DNA of 64,000 bases, taken from the NCBI GenBank assembly GCA_035634255.1, contig DASQDI010000079.1, forward strand, positions 53,214 to 117,213, read 5' to 3'. Positions 13,944-22,457 of the stretch are shown piece by piece. The DNA is from Blastocatellia bacterium (GTDB taxonomy: Bacteria > Acidobacteriota > Blastocatellia > UBA7656). The position numbers were made by a program, and so were the translations under genes. Every line of letters begins with the position of its first letter. Position 1 is the stretch's first letter. A model generated the notes under the pieces. That model was not told the DNA's origin. It made no database searches and saw only the letters and a list, made by a program, of their open reading frames with translations.

Positions 13944-14135
13944 TTCTCCCTTCCTCCTTCCGCGACTCTTGAGATGGCGATTCCGGCAGCGCGCTTGAGA
14001 GCGAATGCATGAGATCGTGCGCAATCGACGCCCGGCGGCTGGCGTGCTGCCCTGAATCATATGCCTTGCGAATTCCTACATCAAGTCGAATTGAATGCGG
14101 GTGCATAAGTGCGCCAGATCGAGTATCGTGATCTT

Positions 14136-14690
14136 ATGAGCGAAATATACGTGAGCACAGACGTTGAGACCGACGGGCCGGTGCCGGGCCTCAATTCCAT
14201 GTTGAGCTTCGCCTCGGCGGCCTTTCTTCCCGACAAGACTCTGGTCAGCACCTTCTCGGCGAACCTCGACACTCTGGAGGGGGCGAGGTCCGACCCCGAG
14301 ACGATGGCGTGGTGGGAGACGAAGCCCGAGGCGTGGGAGGCTTGCAGAAGACACCTGCAACCCCCTTCGCTCGTGATGCCGCAGTACGTCTCCTGGCTGA
14401 AGGGGCTGCCCGAGCCCCCCGTCTTCGTGGGCTACCCGGCCGCCTTCGATTTCATGTTCGTCACTTATTACCTCTATCGCTTCGCGGGAGAGAGCCCGTT
14501 TTCTTACCTCGCTCTGGACATAAAATCTTACGCGATGGCCGTGATGAGGGTGGACTTTCACGAGGTCGTCAAGAAAAATATGCCCCAGCGGTGGTTCGAC
14601 GCCCTGCCTTACACGCACATCGCTCTGGACGACGCCATCTCTCAGGGCGCTCTGTTCTGCAACATGCTGGATGAGAACACGAACCGGTGA
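14136..14690 (+). CDS. DEDDh-type 3'-5' exonuclease-like protein
   Basis: [13 protein letters not shown] (DxE), FDFMFV and [11 protein letters not shown] (Hx4D) motifs. Confidence 0.65.
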
Positions 14691-16605: not shown

Positions 16606-17547
16606 TCACTCGAACGGCACTTGCAGAGCGCCTCGCATGTAACCGATCATCAGGTCGCCGTCGTAGCCCCCGAACCAGAAGGTCACGGGCCACGGCGCTT
16701 CGAGGTCGAGCCTGCGCCCGTTTTCGCCGGCTTCGATCCCCTCGACCAGCCCCTTGCTCCCTTCGATGTGGAAATTCCAGATGCGTTGCATGCCGAGGCG
16801 GCTCCTGATCCTCTGCCCGAAGAACTCGATGACGTAGAGGCGAGTTTTGTACATCTCTTCGAGCGCCCTCTTATCCATGCCCGTCTCCGCCGCCTCCTGC
16901 TCCACGTTCTTAAGCAGCCCCTCTATGTCTTTCGCGCGGTCATTGAAGTACTCGAAGAAGTCATAGACCCCGATGGCTTCCATGACTTCAAGGCTCGGCT
17001 CCGCGGCGGGCGGGACGCCGAGCCGGTCCTGATAAACGTCCGGCGGCAGCTTCCAGAGAGGTATGTCGCGAGAGAGCACGTCTTTCCTCTGGATGTGCTG
17101 ATCAGGGTGGTCCGGGTTTCTTATGTCGATGATGAAAGGGTCTATCGGGAACTCGACGTTGTCATCGGACGCGACGATGTCGTTGCGCCCTTCGAACATC
17201 GGCCCCACGTCCCCGGTCCTGAAGTCTCTGTCGAGCAGGTTGACCATGCCGCCCACTAGGTTTTGAGCCGGGGCGTAACTCGCGCCGTTGACGGTCGCGG
17301 ACTTCACCTTCACGCCGAGGCTGAGCTTATTCTGCTCTATCAGGCGCGGCCCCGGCTTCCGCAGGTTCTTCTTCAGGTACTCTTCGCTCGGGTTGAGCAG
17401 GATGTAGTTATCGAGGTCCGTCTCGCTCGCGAGCGCGAGGGTGTAGCCGCTGACCCCGCGCTTCTCGTCGGTCGGGTCCGGGTCGGTGGTCAGCCTGCAC
17501 ATGAAGTAGCCTTCGAAGGCGATGTCGAGCGTTTCCCAGTTTTTCAT
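16606..17547 (-). CDS. Hypothetical protein (partner of the ferritin-like protein)
   Basis: 313-aa ORF with balanced composition, 18 nt downstream of the ferritin-like gene on the same strand. No family recognised. Confidence 0.6.
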   Translation of the reverse strand: MKNWETLDIAFEGYFMCRLTTDPDPTDEKRGVSGYTLALASETDLDNYILLNPSEEYLKKNLRKPGPRLIEQNKLSLGVKVKSATVNGASYAPAQNLVGGMVNLLDRDFRTGDVGPMFEGRNDIVASDDNVEFPIDPFIIDIRNPDHPDQHIQRKDVLSRDIPLWKLPPDVYQDRLGVPPAAEPSLEVMEAIGVYDFFEYFNDRAKDIEGLLKNVEQEAAETGMDKRALEEMYKTRLYVIEFFGQRIRSRLGMQRIWNFHIEGSKGLVEGIEAGENGRRLDLEAPWPVTFWFGGYDGDLMIGYMRGALQVPFE

Positions 17548-17565
17548 CGTAATCTCTCCCGTGGC

Positions 17566-18945
17566 CTAGCTTGTGATGAAGCGCCGGAAGTTGGCGTTCA
17601 TTCGTGAGATGTTCTCGCACATGAAGTCCAGTCTCTTATGAACGTCCGGCGGCTGGCCGAGCTTTTTAGACATCTCTCTGAGGCGGTCACCCTGCCGTTC
17701 CATCAGGCCGATCCTCTTCAGGAAGAAGTCGGGTAGCTCCTTTTCGGGAGGCAGTCTCAGGGGCGATTCTTCCGTGGGCTCGGGCTGATCCTTGTCGGGC
17801 ACGAGGTCCCAGTTGGGCCCCGCGAAGTACGGGCCTTTGCCCGACGGCAGGCGCGTGATGATCTCCCCGAGCGGGCGGAGGATCATCGTCATCATCGGGG
17901 CGAAGGCCGTCTCCTGAAGCGCGGTACTGACGTTTCTGAAAGACTGGTCGCACGACACGGGCGAAAAGTAGGCGTAAAAGCCCAGGAGCATGTAGACCAT
18001 CGTGGTGTAGCTGTCGTTGAAGAAGTCCATCGCTTCGAGCGCGAACGGGTCCGTGACGTTCTCTTTCGACGGGTTGAGCACGACGTTCCATGCGGGCTCG
18101 AAGTCGGGGTTGTTCTGATTCGCGGCTTTGAACTCTTCGAGTATCTCGGCGAAGATGTGGAAGTGGCTCGAAAAGGCCGGCTGCGCGTCGATGCCTTCGC
18201 CCTGCTTGAGTATCAGGTTGATGGCGGCGTTGGCCGTGGGGACGCTCGTCACCGGGAAGGTAAAGATGTTCATCTCGAAGTTGAATTGAAAGTCCTGGTA
18301 TGGCTCGCGGCTCGGGGTGCCCCTGAAGAGATTTTTCAAGTCGTCGTAGCCGTGGCAGTTGTTGATCGCCACCTGAATCGCCTGATAAAGCTGCTGGACC
18401 GATTGGAAGTCGATGCCCTGCCTTAAAGATCGGGGCGGCACGAGCGCCAGAGGCTCTTCCGGCTCGCCCGTTAGCATGGGCTGAGTCCTTTTCGGCTCAA
18501 GCTCGGACAGGTCGAAGCCCGTGCCTTCGAGGTGTCGGTCGTCGGGCTTTTCGAACTTCACGAAGCGGCGGACCGCGCGCTTGTTGTACCGCTCAAGCCG
18601 GAAGGGCAGGTCGAGGTGGTCGAAGAAGTCGGATTGGAGCGGGAAATCGGGCCGGTAGAAGTAAGGGGCCTCGCCCATCCCTATCAACAGATTGTTCACG
18701 AGCCCGAGGTGCTCCATCTCCTGCCGCGCGACCATCATGGTCTTGGCCTCCCACCGCCTGACGATCTCGGCCTCGGCCGGAGAGATGCCCGGCTCGTTCG
18801 CTTTCTTCAGAGTGATCGCCGCGTGCAGGTAGCAGATCATGAGTAGCTGTTCAAGCTCGGAGGCGTCTTGCAGGGCGCTGACCAGTTGCCTGCGCGTCTC
18901 GATCACGGGAGCGTCTTGCGGAGGCGGAGGATTGCAGGGGTCCAT
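17566..18945 (-). CDS. Ferritin-like domain protein
   Basis: N-terminal ELEQLLMICYLHAAITLK and ARQEMEHLGLVNNLL (ExxH) resemble the ferritin-like four-helix family. Confidence 0.6.
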   Translation of the reverse strand: MDPCNPPPPQDAPVIETRRQLVSALQDASELEQLLMICYLHAAITLKKANEPGISPAEAEIVRRWEAKTMMVARQEMEHLGLVNNLLIGMGEAPYFYRPDFPLQSDFFDHLDLPFRLERYNKRAVRRFVKFEKPDDRHLEGTGFDLSELEPKRTQPMLTGEPEEPLALVPPRSLRQGIDFQSVQQLYQAIQVAINNCHGYDDLKNLFRGTPSREPYQDFQFNFEMNIFTFPVTSVPTANAAINLILKQGEGIDAQPAFSSHFHIFAEILEEFKAANQNNPDFEPAWNVVLNPSKENVTDPFALEAMDFFNDSYTTMVYMLLGFYAYFSPVSCDQSFRNVSTALQETAFAPMMTMILRPLGEIITRLPSGKGPYFAGPNWDLVPDKDQPEPTEESPLRLPPEKELPDFFLKRIGLMERQGDRLREMSKKLGQPPDVHKRLDFMCENISRMNANFRRFITS

Positions 18946-19137
18946 GAAATTTCTCCTTTCGATTTAGCGAACGAAATCAACCGGGGTGAGCCTTGTGAAA
19001 TGAGAGCCACAAACAACTCCCGAATAGTATGAGTGGCATAATTCAAAGTCAAGCGAGCCGCTCATGATTTAAAAATAATGAGCATTACTGCTACAATCCT
19101 GCCGTCCAAGCTCCGTATCATTCGAGGAACATATAAA

Positions 19138-21639
19138 ATGAGCAAGCCACCCAGCCGCCGAAGGGAAAAGAATCAAGATAAGTTATCCGAGGTATCCGCC
19201 CTCATCGAGGCAGCGCGCAAGAGTCAAATAATGAGATTGGATTTATCTGGAATGGGCTTCACTGAAGTGCCGGAATCAATTGGCCAGTTAACTCAGCTTC
19301 AGGTTCTACACCTCTCCAATAATAAACTGACAAAGTTGCCCGACTCAATCGGACAGTTGACGCGGCTTCAGAATCTATACCTCTCCGGCAATAGACTGAC
19401 AGAAGTGCCGGAATCAATCGGCCAGTTGACGCGGCTTATAGCTTTGTCCCTATCCAACAATCAACTGGCAAAGTTGCCTGAGTCAATCGGCCGATTAACC
19501 CAGCTTCGAATTCTGTACGCCGATCATAATCATCTAATAAATTTGCCGGAGTCTCTGAAAAGCCTTATATCCCTAAAAGCGCTCTTTCTACATGGGAATG
19601 ACTCACTTAACCTTCCTGCGGAAGTCTTGGGGACAACATGGCAGGAGGCTGCTGCGCAGAAATTGCAGATGGCCAACGCTGCCGACATCATCGATTATTA
19701 TTTTCGCATTCGCGGCGAGCCGCGTCCCTTGAACGAAGCCAAGCTCATTCTGGTCGGTCGCGGAGAGGTGGGCAAGACCACTATAGTCAATCGACTCGTG
19801 CATAAACGATTTAACAAGAATGAAAAGAAGACGGAAGGTATCAATATCACAGCATGGCCGCTCACGCTCAATGGAGATGAGAATGTGCGGCTCAACGTCT
19901 GGGACTTCGGCGGGCAGGAGATTATGCACGCCACCCACCAGTTCTTCCTCACTCAACGCAGCCTTTACCTGCTCGTTCTGAATGGCCGCATGGGTGGCGA
20001 AGAGGCTGAAGCCGAGTACTGGCTCAAGCTCATCGAGAGCTTCGGAGGCGATTCGCCCGTCATCGTCGTGATGAACAAGATCAAGGAACATCCGTTCGAT
20101 GTGAATCGGCGTGCGCTGCAACAAAAGTATCCGGTGATCCGCGACTTCATCAAGACGGATTGTGAAGACGAAACGGGCATTGAAGACCTTCGCAAAGTGA
20201 TTGAGAGAGAGACCGACCGGCTTGAGCATCTGCGCGACTCTTTCCCGGCAAGCTGGTTTTCGATTAAGGATAAACTCGCTGGAATGGAGAAGAACTATCT
20301 GAACTTTGATGAGTACCGCGATGTTTGCGCGGGACTCGGTGAAACAGACTCGAAGGCTCAGGAGGCGCTCGCATTTTATCTGCACAGTCTCGGAATCGCT
20401 CTCAACTACAAAGACGATCCGCGATTGCAGGACACGCACGTCCTGAATCCGCGATGGGTCACGAACGGCATCTATAAGATTTTGAATTCAGACAAGCTTG
20501 AAGAACAGCACGGTCTGATTCGCTTGAGCGATCTGCCCGGAATCCTCGACACATCGGAATACCCAATAAAAATGCACCTTTTTCTGCTCGACCTGATGAA
20601 AAAGTTCGAGCTGTGCTTCAGCTTTCCGGGTGACGAGAACTATTATCTGATTCCCGAACTGCTCGACAAGCAGGAGCCTCTGGACACGGCAAACTTCAAT
20701 CTCGCAGAGTGCTTAAACTTTCAGTATCACTACCCCGTGCTGCCGGAAGGCCTGCTGCCTCGCTTTATAGTCCGTACGCACGCGATGAGTGAGGGCTTAC
20801 CGCGCTGGCGTACCGGAGTAATCCTCAGGTTTGAGAGCAATCAAGCTCTGGTGAAAGCAGATGCGCAGGATAAGAAAGTATTCATCTCCGTTTCAGGCCC
20901 GGCGGCGAGCCGCCGTCGGTTGCTTGCCATAATCCGGTCGGACTTCGAAAGAATCCACCACGACATTCGCAATCTGAAGCCGGAGGAGATGGTCCCTCTT
21001 CCCGATTACCCGCAGGAGACGGTTACTTACCACGAACTGGCGGTGATGGAACAAGCCGGGGTGAATAAGTTCACCAAGGTTGTCGGCAATCGCGTGCTCC
21101 CTCTGGTCGTAGATGACTTGCTCAACGGGGTGGACCTCGAAGGTACTCGCCGGAAGCAGGCGAGGATGGATGAGAGAAGGGATGCGGTGCGGTTGTTCTA
21201 CAGCTATTCGCACAAGGACGAGAGGCTGCGAAACAACCTTGAGACTCACCTGAAGCTGATGCAGCGCCGGGGAGTGATCGACGTGTGGCACGACCGCAAG
21301 ATCGAGGCGGGCGAGGACTGGAAGCAGAAGATCGATCAGAACCTTGAGCAAGCCGACATCATCCTCCTGCTCGTGAGCGCGGACTTTATCAATTCGGATT
21401 ACTGCTATGAGATAGAGATGAAGCGCGCTCTGGAGCGTCACGATAAGGGAGAAGCGAGAGTCGTCCCGGTCATAGTGCGCGATGTGAACTGGTCGGCCGC
21501 CCCGTTCGCGCGGCTGCAAGCCCTGCCTAAAGACGGTCTGCCCGTCAGCAAATGGCGCGACAGGGATTCGGCGCTCCGCAATGTTTCCGAAGGCATTGAA
21601 ATGGTAGTCAAAGAAATGAGAAAGACTACCCGAGCCTGA
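19138..21639 (+). CDS. LRR-Roc(GTPase)-COR-TIR multidomain protein (ROCO family with a TIR effector)
   Basis: Six 23-aa LRRs (LxxLPESIGQLTxLxxLxLSxNxL). Roc motifs GRGEVGKTT and WDFGGQE. Long COR-like middle region. C-terminal TIR: FYSYSHKDE...LLLVSADFINSDYCYEIEM...VVPVIV. Confidence 0.85.
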   Translation: MSKPPSRRREKNQDKLSEVSALIEAARKSQIMRLDLSGMGFTEVPESIGQLTQLQVLHLSNNKLTKLPDSIGQLTRLQNLYLSGNRLTEVPESIGQLTRLIALSLSNNQLAKLPESIGRLTQLRILYADHNHLINLPESLKSLISLKALFLHGNDSLNLPAEVLGTTWQEAAAQKLQMANAADIIDYYFRIRGEPRPLNEAKLILVGRGEVGKTTIVNRLVHKRFNKNEKKTEGINITAWPLTLNGDENVRLNVWDFGGQEIMHATHQFFLTQRSLYLLVLNGRMGGEEAEAEYWLKLIESFGGDSPVIVVMNKIKEHPFDVNRRALQQKYPVIRDFIKTDCEDETGIEDLRKVIERETDRLEHLRDSFPASWFSIKDKLAGMEKNYLNFDEYRDVCAGLGETDSKAQEALAFYLHSLGIALNYKDDPRLQDTHVLNPRWVTNGIYKILNSDKLEEQHGLIRLSDLPGILDTSEYPIKMHLFLLDLMKKFELCFSFPGDENYYLIPELLDKQEPLDTANFNLAECLNFQYHYPVLPEGLLPRFIVRTHAMSEGLPRWRTGVILRFESNQALVKADAQDKKVFISVSGPAASRRRLLAIIRSDFERIHHDIRNLKPEEMVPLPDYPQETVTYHELAVMEQAGVNKFTKVVGNRVLPLVVDDLLNGVDLEGTRRKQARMDERRDAVRLFYSYSHKDERLRNNLETHLKLMQRRGVIDVWHDRKIEAGEDWKQKIDQNLEQADIILLLVSADFINSDYCYEIEMKRALERHDKGEARVVPVIVRDVNWSAAPFARLQALPKDGLPVSKWRDRDSALRNVSEGIEMVVKEMRKTTRA
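19237..19630 (+). repeat. Tandem 69-bp coding repeats (LRR units)
   Basis: Near-identical DNA units, e.g. gtgccggaatcaattggccagttaactcagcttcag and gtgccggaatcaatcggccagttgacgcggctt. Confidence 0.7.
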
Positions 21640-21656: not shown

Positions 21657-22277
21657 TCAGAAGCGGTAGCCGACGCCCGCTGTGAACTGAAAGTTATGGC
21701 TGATGCCGTCGGCCCTCACCCCATCGCCGCGACGATTTAAGAGTCTGTCATCGTTGAACCGAATCATGGTATCGCCCACGTCCGCTCTCACGATCACCCT
21801 GCGAGTCGGGTAAAATTCGAAGACCGCTCCGGCGTCCATCGAGAACCTGTTACCGCTTCGCGCGCCTCTTTCGCAGGCCAGAGGATCGGGGTCGAAGCCG
21901 CAGAAGCCTCGTAGCGTCCTCAGACCCGGAAAGCTGACGACTCCCGCGCGTAGCTTGGCGAACGCCCCCACCCATCGGTTGCGCTTACCCGCCTTCACTC
22001 CGATCACACCCTGAGCCCTGTCGTCGAGTAGATCGTTACCAAAGCTGTACTTCGGAAAATAGTTCCCTTCGGCCTCTACCGAGAGGTAGTCATTGATGTT
22101 GAAGCCGAGCCGCGTTCCTATACCCACCTCCGTCTCATCGACGGCGCTGAAGTTGAGGGCCGTGTAATGAACGCTTATTTCCATGCGATTATCTCCCGGC
22201 TGCGCTCTCGACTCACCCGCCGCAACAGAGAGCACGAACGCCGCCGCGAGCACCCACGGGCGTAAATTCTTTAACAT
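21657..22277 (-). CDS. Outer-membrane beta-barrel (OmpA-like/porin-family) protein
   Basis: ATG at 22277 after AGGAGG. Signal peptide ending ESRAQ. Alternating strands. C-terminal GVGYRF. Confidence 0.7.
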   Translation of the reverse strand: MLKNLRPWVLAAAFVLSVAAGESRAQPGDNRMEISVHYTALNFSAVDETEVGIGTRLGFNINDYLSVEAEGNYFPKYSFGNDLLDDRAQGVIGVKAGKRNRWVGAFAKLRAGVVSFPGLRTLRGFCGFDPDPLACERGARSGNRFSMDAGAVFEFYPTRRVIVRADVGDTMIRFNDDRLLNRRGDGVRADGISHNFQFTAGVGYRF

Positions 22278-22457
22278 AATTTCCTCCTTTCCTGGGGCAT
22301 CGCCTGGCAATCCTGATGCCGGCAGGGAAGTTGAAGAAAAATCGAATTCATCGCGTAATCGAGTCAAATCGGGTTGCTATCAATGGCCGACATATGAAAG
22401 AAATATGTTGCACCTCGGCGTACCCCTGCCGGGCCCCTAAAGAAAGAGAGTAGAACG

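Follow-up and report, generated by a model that had tools for sequence, protein, structure and literature searches.

A leucine-rich-repeat Roco GTPase with a TIR domain from a Blastocatellia bacterium, a candidate single-gene conflict protein

The gene and its protein product

We analysed a 64,000-nucleotide stretch of contig DASQDI010000079.1 from Blastocatellia bacterium (NCBI GenBank assembly GCA_035634255.1, positions 53,214 to 117,213 of the forward strand), which is called the window below and whose own numbering is used throughout. At 19138-21639 on the plus strand it carries a complete gene for an 833-residue protein in which Pfam finds, in this order, leucine-rich repeats (LRRs), Roc, COR-A, COR-B and TIR, every domain above its curated cut-off. 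A preliminary description, made from the sequence letters, had called this a single-gene LRR-Roc-COR-TIR protein, and the domain scans and structure prediction that it proposed bear this out: Pfam, AlphaFold2 (AF2) and Foldseek located the domains and their borders, the AF2 models are confident (full protein: mean predicted local distance difference test (pLDDT) score 82.7, predicted template modelling score 0.66), and the motifs it quoted (GRGEVGKT, DFGGQE, SYSH and CYEIEM) were all recovered by translation. The gene and its features are as follows.

19138..21639, plus strand: complete coding sequence of the LRR-Roc-COR-TIR protein, 833 residues and stop codon (open reading frame (ORF) listing, Pfam, homologue lengths)
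19068-19097, plus strand: promoter-like site TTTAAA-18-TACAAT, sigma-70-like (consensus match only)
~19122-19126, plus strand: GAGGA Shine-Dalgarno sequence, ~10 nt 5' of the ATG at 19138 (consensus match only)
19225..19632, plus strand: LRR domain, residues 30-165, predicted ligand sensor (Pfam LRR_8/LRR_14, AF2, tandem period)
19732..20217, plus strand: Roc (Ras of complex) G domain, residues 199-360 (Pfam Roc at 202-315, 3e-31)
19756..19779, plus strand: G1 P-loop GRGEVGKT, G207-T214 (G207, G209, G212, K213 and T214 invariant)
19903..19920, plus strand: G3 / switch II DFGGQE, D256-E261 (invariant in 36 homologues)
20074..20088, plus strand: atypical G4 NKIKE, N313-E317 (guanine-specificity Asp of NKxD replaced by Lys316)
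20155..20163, plus strand: atypical G5 TDC, T340-C342 (D341 clade-invariant, at the Ser position of canonical SCK)
20245..20664, plus strand: COR-A, residues 370-509 (Pfam COR-A 1e-40; Foldseek to 3dpu and 4wnr)
20707..21090, plus strand: COR-B, residues 524-651 (Pfam COR-B 8e-34; Foldseek to 3dpt and 3dpu)
21091..21189, plus strand: flexible COR-B-to-TIR linker, residues 652-684 (pLDDT <50 at 674-680)
21190..21624, plus strand: TIR domain, residues 685-829, predicted NAD+-cleaving effector (Pfam TIR_2, PADLOC, AF2, Foldseek)
21415..21417, plus strand: codon of Glu760, predicted catalytic glutamate, the second E of CYEIEM (aligned with Cat1 E74, invariant)

The long plus-strand ORF spans 19078-21639, and an alternative upstream ATG at 19078 would extend the product to 853 residues. 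The start at 19138 is supported by the GAGGA sequence ~10 nt upstream, by the sigma-70-like site and by homologue lengths, as homologues of 833-835 residues align across 100% of the 833-residue query. Transcription from the site at 19068-19097 would begin past the ATG at 19078. Neither a signal peptide nor a membrane segment was found in the 833-residue sequence and, because it lacks any hydrophobic segment of at least 12 residues, the protein is predicted to be cytoplasmic.

Relatives are abundant, with more than 7,600 in the protein database at E <1e-20. All of the best 120 share the full-length LRR-Roc-COR-TIR architecture, at 57-72% identity, and named relatives include proteins of Desulfomonile, KSB1, Longimicrobiaceae, Pyrinomonadaceae, Nodosilinea and Fibrisoma. 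Scanning one genome per species yielded 80 loci, most of them from Acidobacteriota (Pyrinomonadaceae, Blastocatellia and Bryobacterales) and the remainder from KSB1, Bacteroidota, Abditibacteriaceae, Chlorobiaceae, Nitrospinota and one firmicute metagenome-assembled genome (MAG). More distant Rocos were found in Cyanobacteria, Planctomycetota and Actinoplanes.

Sensor, switch and effector domains

The LRR domain is covered by the Pfam models LRR_8, LRR_14 and LRR_4 between residues 30 and 160. The preliminary description had counted six repeats of 23 residues, and two periods agree with this: short beta-strands follow one another at intervals of exactly 23 residues in the AF2 model, six in all (at 33, 56, 79, 102, 125 and 148), and the DNA shows a 69-bp tandem period at 19264-19492 (Tandem Repeats Finder). 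The first and last repeats are degenerate. Mean pairwise identity is 55% in the LRR domain, compared with 78% in Roc, 70% in COR-A, 71% in COR-B and 70% in TIR, and the number of repeats differs among homologues, as judged from a pre-Roc region that ranges from 164 to 554 residues. Across 875 repeats, the scaffold L, N and P positions are fixed, and entropy peaks at positions x3, x5, x7 and x8 of LxxLxLxxN (3.1-3.8 bits) and at x13. The concave positions x3, x5, x7 and x8 are those at which LRR receptors contact their ligands, and are the highly variable ones. Two MAGs encode two paralogues each (L022/L046 and L016/L048), and these same-genome paralogues diverge most in the N-terminus and LRR domain (39-44% identity) compared with 71-75% in Roc.

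Sub-threshold NCBIfam matches of the LRR region to XopAC, XopAE, XopL, SlrP and SspH2 raise the question of whether the protein could be an exported, host-targeting effector, akin to the bacterial TIR proteins that interfere with eukaryotic Toll-like receptor signalling or to LRR type III effectors. These matches fall far under the curated cut-offs (for example, 87 vs 450 bits) and capture generic LRR features only. Given also that the protein has neither a signal peptide nor a hydrophobic segment, that no secretion genes lie nearby, that the hosts belong to free-living soil and sediment phyla, and that we know of no secreted effector with a Roc-COR switch, we consider export to a host extremely improbable.

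Pfam, Foldseek and phmmer all show Roc followed directly by COR in one polypeptide, the arrangement that identifies a ROCO protein. The Roc domain matches that of MbRoco2 (4wnr) at 2e-55 and that of CtRoco at 1e-34, and structural matches of the full model are dominated by CtRoco, LRRK1 and LRRK2 (Foldseek). COR-B is the dimerisation module in the solved Rocos. The canonical Roco motifs G1 (GxxxxGKT), G2 Thr (T232, invariant across the 36 homologues) and G3 (DxxGQ) are all present. The canonical G4 (NKxD) and G5 (S-C/A-K) are not, and NKIK and TDC stand in their places. This is a deviation inside the ROCO family and provides no ground for exclusion from it.

The G4 and G5 changes extend well beyond this gene. 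Within 72 of the genome loci, members with a closely related TIR all combine NKx(K/R/...) with TDC and a GRG P-loop, and every other Roco combines NKxD with xSC and a GQG, GDG or GEG P-loop. The pattern was refined with the best 150 of 13,328 matches in a library clustered at 50%, among which a large clade has an almost invariant G5 Asp, and the former G4 Asp position drifts among K, R, N, G, S, A, E, Q, H and others. Six clustered representatives have both Asps and may be plausible intermediates. A link between the swap and TIR fusion was considered and rejected: the swap is also present in clade members that end in PNP, CHAT or unknown modules, and therefore marks the clade and not TIR linkage. 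Four further proteins (P0241, P0342, P0370 and P0387) contain two Roc-like G domains per chain, one of them degenerate (for example, NEKQDR/ATNLA or SKADML).

In Ras, the G4 Asp (D119) reads N1 and N2 of guanine, and the G5 Ser (S145) hydrogen-bonds to the G4 Asp. The simplest reading suggested by the alignments is that the base contact moved from the G4 to the G5 Asp, leaving G4 unconstrained, and the nucleotide is probably still guanine. Alternatively, the nucleotide specificity of the clade may have changed, for which SpoIVA, a descendant of the TRAFAC GTPases that hydrolyses ATP, provides a precedent (PMC7952092). To our knowledge, this rewiring has not been described previously for Roco proteins, and the relocation of the Asp looks like a natural experiment in nucleotide recognition by G domains.

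The linker between COR-B and TIR (residues 652-684) has a mean pairwise identity of 51%, and only the N-terminus is less conserved. Beyond it, residues 687-794 match Pfam TIR_2 at 6e-17 and the classical TIR model at 8e-7, and the PADLOC ThsB model PDLC00420 covers residues 685-829 at 5e-60, far ahead of all other defence models. A TIR-only AF2 model (pLDDT 84.7) gave a Foldseek probability of 1.0 to Cat1, RPP1, AbTir and SARM1, and its best structural matches are to the enzymatically active Cat1, RPPT/RPP1, AbTir, TIR-1/SARM1 and RUN1. The best sequence matches are to Cat1 (5e-7) and AbTir.

In Cat1, residues S7, H8, N9, N10, D33, S68 and E74 line the NADase pocket, and the N10A, D33A, S68A and E74A mutants are dead (PMC12162218). 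HMMER aligns Cat1 S7, D33, S68 and E74 with S689, D719, S753 and E760, all of which are invariant in the 36 full-length homologues and in an 18-sequence alignment of the TIR. The preliminary description had placed the catalytic glutamate in CYEIEM. A glutamate is indeed present at the position of Cat1 E74, but this wording was ambiguous, since the motif holds two glutamates and only E760 fits. The first of them (E758), hinted at by the alignment with AbTir, was rejected because it is variable (E/D/K/G/A/N), whereas E760 is invariant and aligned with Cat1 E74. Failure to match TIR models or loss of the catalytic glutamate had been named as grounds for abandoning the assignment, and neither was observed (TIR_2 at 6e-17, E760 aligned). 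As far as its sequence goes, the domain has what an NADase-type TIR requires. The composite site of Cat1 also depends on K121 and Y122 contributed by a second TIR (PMC12162218), and these trans-acting residues are not alignable to the TIR described here.

Effector swaps, defence links and genomic setting

Within the same Roco clade, the C-terminal effector slot also holds PNP_UDP_1, CHAT, a different TIR and unknown modules. PNP_UDP_1 and CHAT swaps and other architectures occur among P0252, P0285, P0301, P0371, P0323, P0267 and P0325: P0323 is an HD-CE-Roc-COR-TIR protein in which HD-CE replaces the LRRs, while P0267 and P0325 carry TIR at the N-terminus, before Roc. A further four proteins (P0244, P0260, P0299 and P0314) have 100-270 residues after COR-B with no Pfam family.

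One relative, P0098 (8001-12685 of locus L088), runs on without a break in the reading frame into an ATPase of the Septu PtuA type (PADLOC 2e-56), and a gene for the PtuB HNH nuclease (5e-39) begins 12 nt downstream. Judging by these reading frames, the Roco-TIR receptor is physically fused to a validated defence system in some members. An in-frame PtuA-type fusion is likewise seen in P0043, P0052 and P0082. In a KSB1 MAG (L087, 8847-13190), a PADLOC candidate system gene (PDC-S01, AAA_14/DUF4143, 7e-158) ends 27 nt 5' of the Roco-TIR gene, with a HicA toxin gene downstream and a small adjacent ORF that is possibly an antitoxin, while MazE/PemK pairs lie near the Desulfomonile gene.

A stand-alone TIR of 147 residues, 70% identical to the present one, is encoded in a defence island of the Chlorobium sp. 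MAG JAFLKX010000282 (locus L081, 5815-12187), along with a type I restriction-modification S subunit and Metallophos-NACHT-FGE-sulfatase, MarR/WHD and Mrr_cat-NACHT-WD40 proteins. The island also contains a 394-residue gene with no PADLOC match or Pfam family, which may partner the stand-alone TIR. Many other short stand-alone TIR proteins were set aside, as most are fragments of Roco-TIR genes produced by contig ends or frameshifts, and the Chlorobium protein alone is convincing. In locus L083 (431-6489), a Roco-TIR gene in three pieces (Roc/COR-A, COR-B and TIR), probably through assembly frameshifts or as a pseudogene, sits beside a PrkA kinase gene split by an intein (Intein_splicing and LAGLIDADG).

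The Chlorobium TIR is of the same subtype as ours and adjoins an uncharacterised gene which, together with the lead of the ThsB model over other defence models, favours a Thoeris-like signal generator, in which the TIR would make a cyclic or linear ADP-ribose-derived messenger for an unlinked effector elsewhere in the genome. However, no ThsA-type gene (SIR2/SLOG/Macro) or other complete defence system was found in the 64-kb window and no partner recurs in the 72 loci, while the alternative effectors that occupy the same slot (PNP nucleosidase and CHAT protease) are direct-acting domains. We therefore regard a messenger-based system as unlikely.

The immediate neighbours are those named in the preliminary description. 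A divergent unit upstream (16606-18945, minus strand) encodes a 459-residue ferritin-like protein (PF12902, 5.5e-32) and then a 313-residue protein for which no Pfam or PADLOC family was found, and the convergent gene downstream encodes an outer membrane protein (OMP) beta-barrel (OMP_b-brl). Cross-matches to defence models in the window are generic only (patatin, adenosine-deaminase and exonuclease). A 193-residue DEDD-type exonuclease (14109-14690, plus strand) scores 1.2e-30 against PDLC00753, the PADLOC model for a CBASS-type 'Effector, Exonuclease', with only a sub-threshold match in Pfam (Rv2179c-like), and no cyclase or other CBASS gene is seen nearby. Signs of a mobile element were sought in the window, and no tRNA, insertion scar or notable flanking repeat (direct or inverted) was found, nor any integrase among the listed families.

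Flanking ORFs were clustered over the 72 loci, and a conserved partner gene was rejected, as each flanking family is confined to at most 8 of them and those that recur are housekeeping genes, with isocitrate dehydrogenase and purK forming one group and argB, FtsH and an OTCase-like gene the other. The gene is thus a single-gene module, in line with the earlier claim that it has no partner. PADLOC detected no enrichment of defence genes among the 112 nearest ORFs (32 loci) relative to 89 ORFs more than 5.5 kb away, although this comparison is crude, with ad hoc ORF calls and mostly one phylum, and would not resolve a modest enrichment. Consistent housekeeping surroundings had been put forward as evidence that would undermine an immune role, and this is partly what was observed: in many Acidobacteria the gene occupies stable positions beside housekeeping genes, and no enrichment of defence genes next to it was measured.

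Base composition sets the gene apart from its surroundings. Its G+C content is below that of the flanks in 38 of 42 loci, by a mean of 5.6 points. In the window the values are 0.53 against 0.61, and G+C at third codon positions (GC3) is 0.64, among the lowest of 59 window ORFs (typically 0.75-0.88), with the LRR part lowest at 0.53. The convergent OMP gene (21657-22367) also has a low GC3 (0.67), and the two genes may have arrived together.

Taken at face value, stable synteny with isocitrate dehydrogenase/purK or argB/FtsH in related Acidobacteria, a core-chromosome window without defence genes enriched beside the gene, and 57-72% identity between phyla would suit a non-immune regulatory GTPase, a housekeeping or developmental signalling switch acting, for example, in stress, cell-cell or NAD-metabolism functions, with the TIR as an interaction scaffold or a regulated NAD-turnover enzyme unrelated to invaders. 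Such a role fits poorly with effector swapping, PtuA fusions with PtuB downstream, wide variation in LRR length and sequence, LRR-divergent paralogues and a G+C content below the flanks, and the invariant catalytic residues would be needless for a pure scaffold. We judge it improbable, if a little less so than a messenger-based system.

Proposed function and comparison with known systems

The explanation that we favour, and hold to be fairly probable, is that the protein is a self-contained cytoplasmic sensor-switch-NADase conflict protein of the bacterial Roco (AP-GTPase) class. At rest, the LRR domain would be folded back on Roc-COR, as in the CtRoco dimer, and the TIRs, tethered to the C-terminus of the dimerisation module COR-B by a flexible linker of ~30 residues, would be kept in a non-productive arrangement. 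A ligand derived from an invader, or modified by one, would bind the variable concave face of the LRRs and change the nucleotide state and conformation of Roc-COR. The TIRs of at least two protomers would then pack into the composite active site on which enzymatic TIRs depend and cleave NAD+, so that the infected cell would be arrested or killed (abortive infection). In CtRoco, GTP makes the LRRs swing widely around the linker that joins them to Roc, and the dimer becomes a monomer (PMC11052575). If GTP also monomerises the present protein, the ON state may be a GDP-bound or empty dimer, or a higher oligomer induced by ligand.

Several points weigh against this explanation. The coupling step is speculative, because GTP-driven monomerisation, if conserved from CtRoco, would not obviously favour TIR-TIR assembly, and the missing G4 Asp makes the nucleotide specificity uncertain. 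ThsB-type TIRs make signals and do not deplete NAD+, and ThsB is the best defence model for this TIR. The window is an unremarkable piece of core chromosome, with genes for a glycogen debranching enzyme, MsrA, peptide deformylase and D-Ala-D-Ala ligase, many acidobacterial loci fall into two stable syntenic positions among housekeeping genes, and both the near and the far ORF sets gave only scattered and mostly generic PADLOC matches.

A more specific proposal, which we put forward tentatively as a minority view, is that the whole GRG/TDC clade of Rocos consists of antiviral receptors in which an LRRK2-type Roc-COR GTPase, in place of a STAND ATPase, gates assembly of the TIR NADase through a rewired pocket, the base-contacting Asp having moved from G4 to G5. 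The switch might then read ATP, xanthosine triphosphate, an infection-linked nucleotide, or guanine in a new way. If this were true, bacterial Rocos would be the ancestral immune form of the LRRK/DAPK switch, and research on LRRK2 would gain a simple enzymatic assay for Roc-COR signalling. This field takes CtRoco and MbRoco2 as structural models. Loss of NAD+ is an easily measured output that could test how the Roc-COR nucleotide cycle controls an effector. An immune role, if correct, would add a non-STAND class of GTPase switch to the single-protein receptors of bacteria and support a bacterial immune origin of the LRRK/DAPK module.

The statement in the preliminary description that no Roc-COR switch feeding a TIR domain had been experimentally characterised as an immune protein agrees with our literature searches, which found no experimental work on a Roco-TIR protein, including in recent surveys of TIR domains and defence. 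A 2019 review described all prokaryotic Rocos as plain LRR-RocCOR proteins (PMC6337361).

The preliminary description had also assigned the protein the logic of Avs/STAND-type systems. The logic itself, a sensor, an NTPase switch and an effector, fits the comparative evidence of effector swapping, PtuA/PtuB fusions, hypervariable LRRs and anomalous base composition, but the protein is not an Avs/STAND member, as its switch is a Ras-like Roc-COR GTPase. It shares with Avs and NLR-like proteins and with the plant TIR-NLRs RPP1 and Roq1 a repeat sensor, an NTP switch and a TIR active on oligomerisation, and the model of its TIR can be superposed on those of RPP1 and Roq1. STAND receptors, however, use an AAA+ ATPase, whereas a TRAFAC Ras-like GTPase with a COR dimeriser is found here, and no STAND module (NACHT or NB-ARC) appears among the Pfam, NCBIfam and PADLOC matches of the protein. 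The domain order also differs, being effector-switch-sensor in plant TIR-NLRs and sensor-switch-effector here.

Among TIR systems, Cat1 and the AbTir/SARM1-type TIRs are the best matches of the TIR in sequence and structure, and the residues equivalent to Cat1 S7, D33, S68 and E74 are conserved. Cat1 is a CARF-TIR protein of type III CRISPR systems that is activated by cA4 on its CARF domain and forms filaments, whereas the regulator here would be Roc-COR-LRR. Thoeris ThsB is matched at the level of the TIR profile (5e-60), but ThsB is small and stand-alone, whereas this TIR is the C-terminal domain of an 833-residue receptor, and the gene is not part of a Thoeris system because ThsA is lacking. 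Neither the window protein nor its flanks contain PtuA or PtuB of Septu, which are found only in the fusion variants elsewhere (P0098 in L088).

The closest characterised structures are those of prokaryotic Rocos. MbRoco2 of Methanosarcina barkeri (4wnr) is matched at 5e-95 by whole-protein phmmer and with a Foldseek template modelling score of 0.84. CtRoco of Chlorobium tepidum (6hlu, 8r4b and 3dpu) shares the LRR-Roc-COR core, with a whole-protein phmmer value of ~7e-86. G1-G3 are identical in these model Rocos (DFGGQE). The solved Rocos keep NKID at G4, SCK at G5 and a GDG/GxG P-loop, as opposed to NKIK, TDC and GRG here, and no TIR like the present one was detected in the solved Roco chains, including CtRoco. 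LRRK1, LRRK2 and DAPK1 also share the LRR-Roc-COR core (phmmer ~5e-33 to LRRK2) and carry an effector domain after COR. The LRRK effector, however, is a kinase, and the eukaryotic ROCOs are far larger, with extra ARM, ANK and WD40 domains. The Roco part is not represented among the PADLOC v2 models.

The nearest overall counterpart is the class of AP-GTPase conflict systems. Kaur, Iyer, Burroughs and Aravind (eLife 2021) described bacterial proteins with an AP-GTPase (equivalent to Roc) and COR and with N-terminal LRRs as predicted counter-invader systems, listed at least 24 C-terminal effector domains, TIR among them, and noted rapidly evolving LRRs and multiple paralogues (PMC8195603). That study was purely computational, and reported neither the rewired G4 and G5 motifs nor the gene's stand-alone status across loci, nor a match at the level of residues to a validated NADase site. 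The architecture is thus already recognised in silico (PMC8195603) and common, with thousands of homologues, and the gene is a member of a computationally known class, otherwise ordinary and one of thousands. It has the same class of architecture, in which a variable LRR region precedes an AP-GTPase-COR unit and a varied effector. AP-GTPase systems have several paralogues per genome, and two copies were found here in each of two MAGs.

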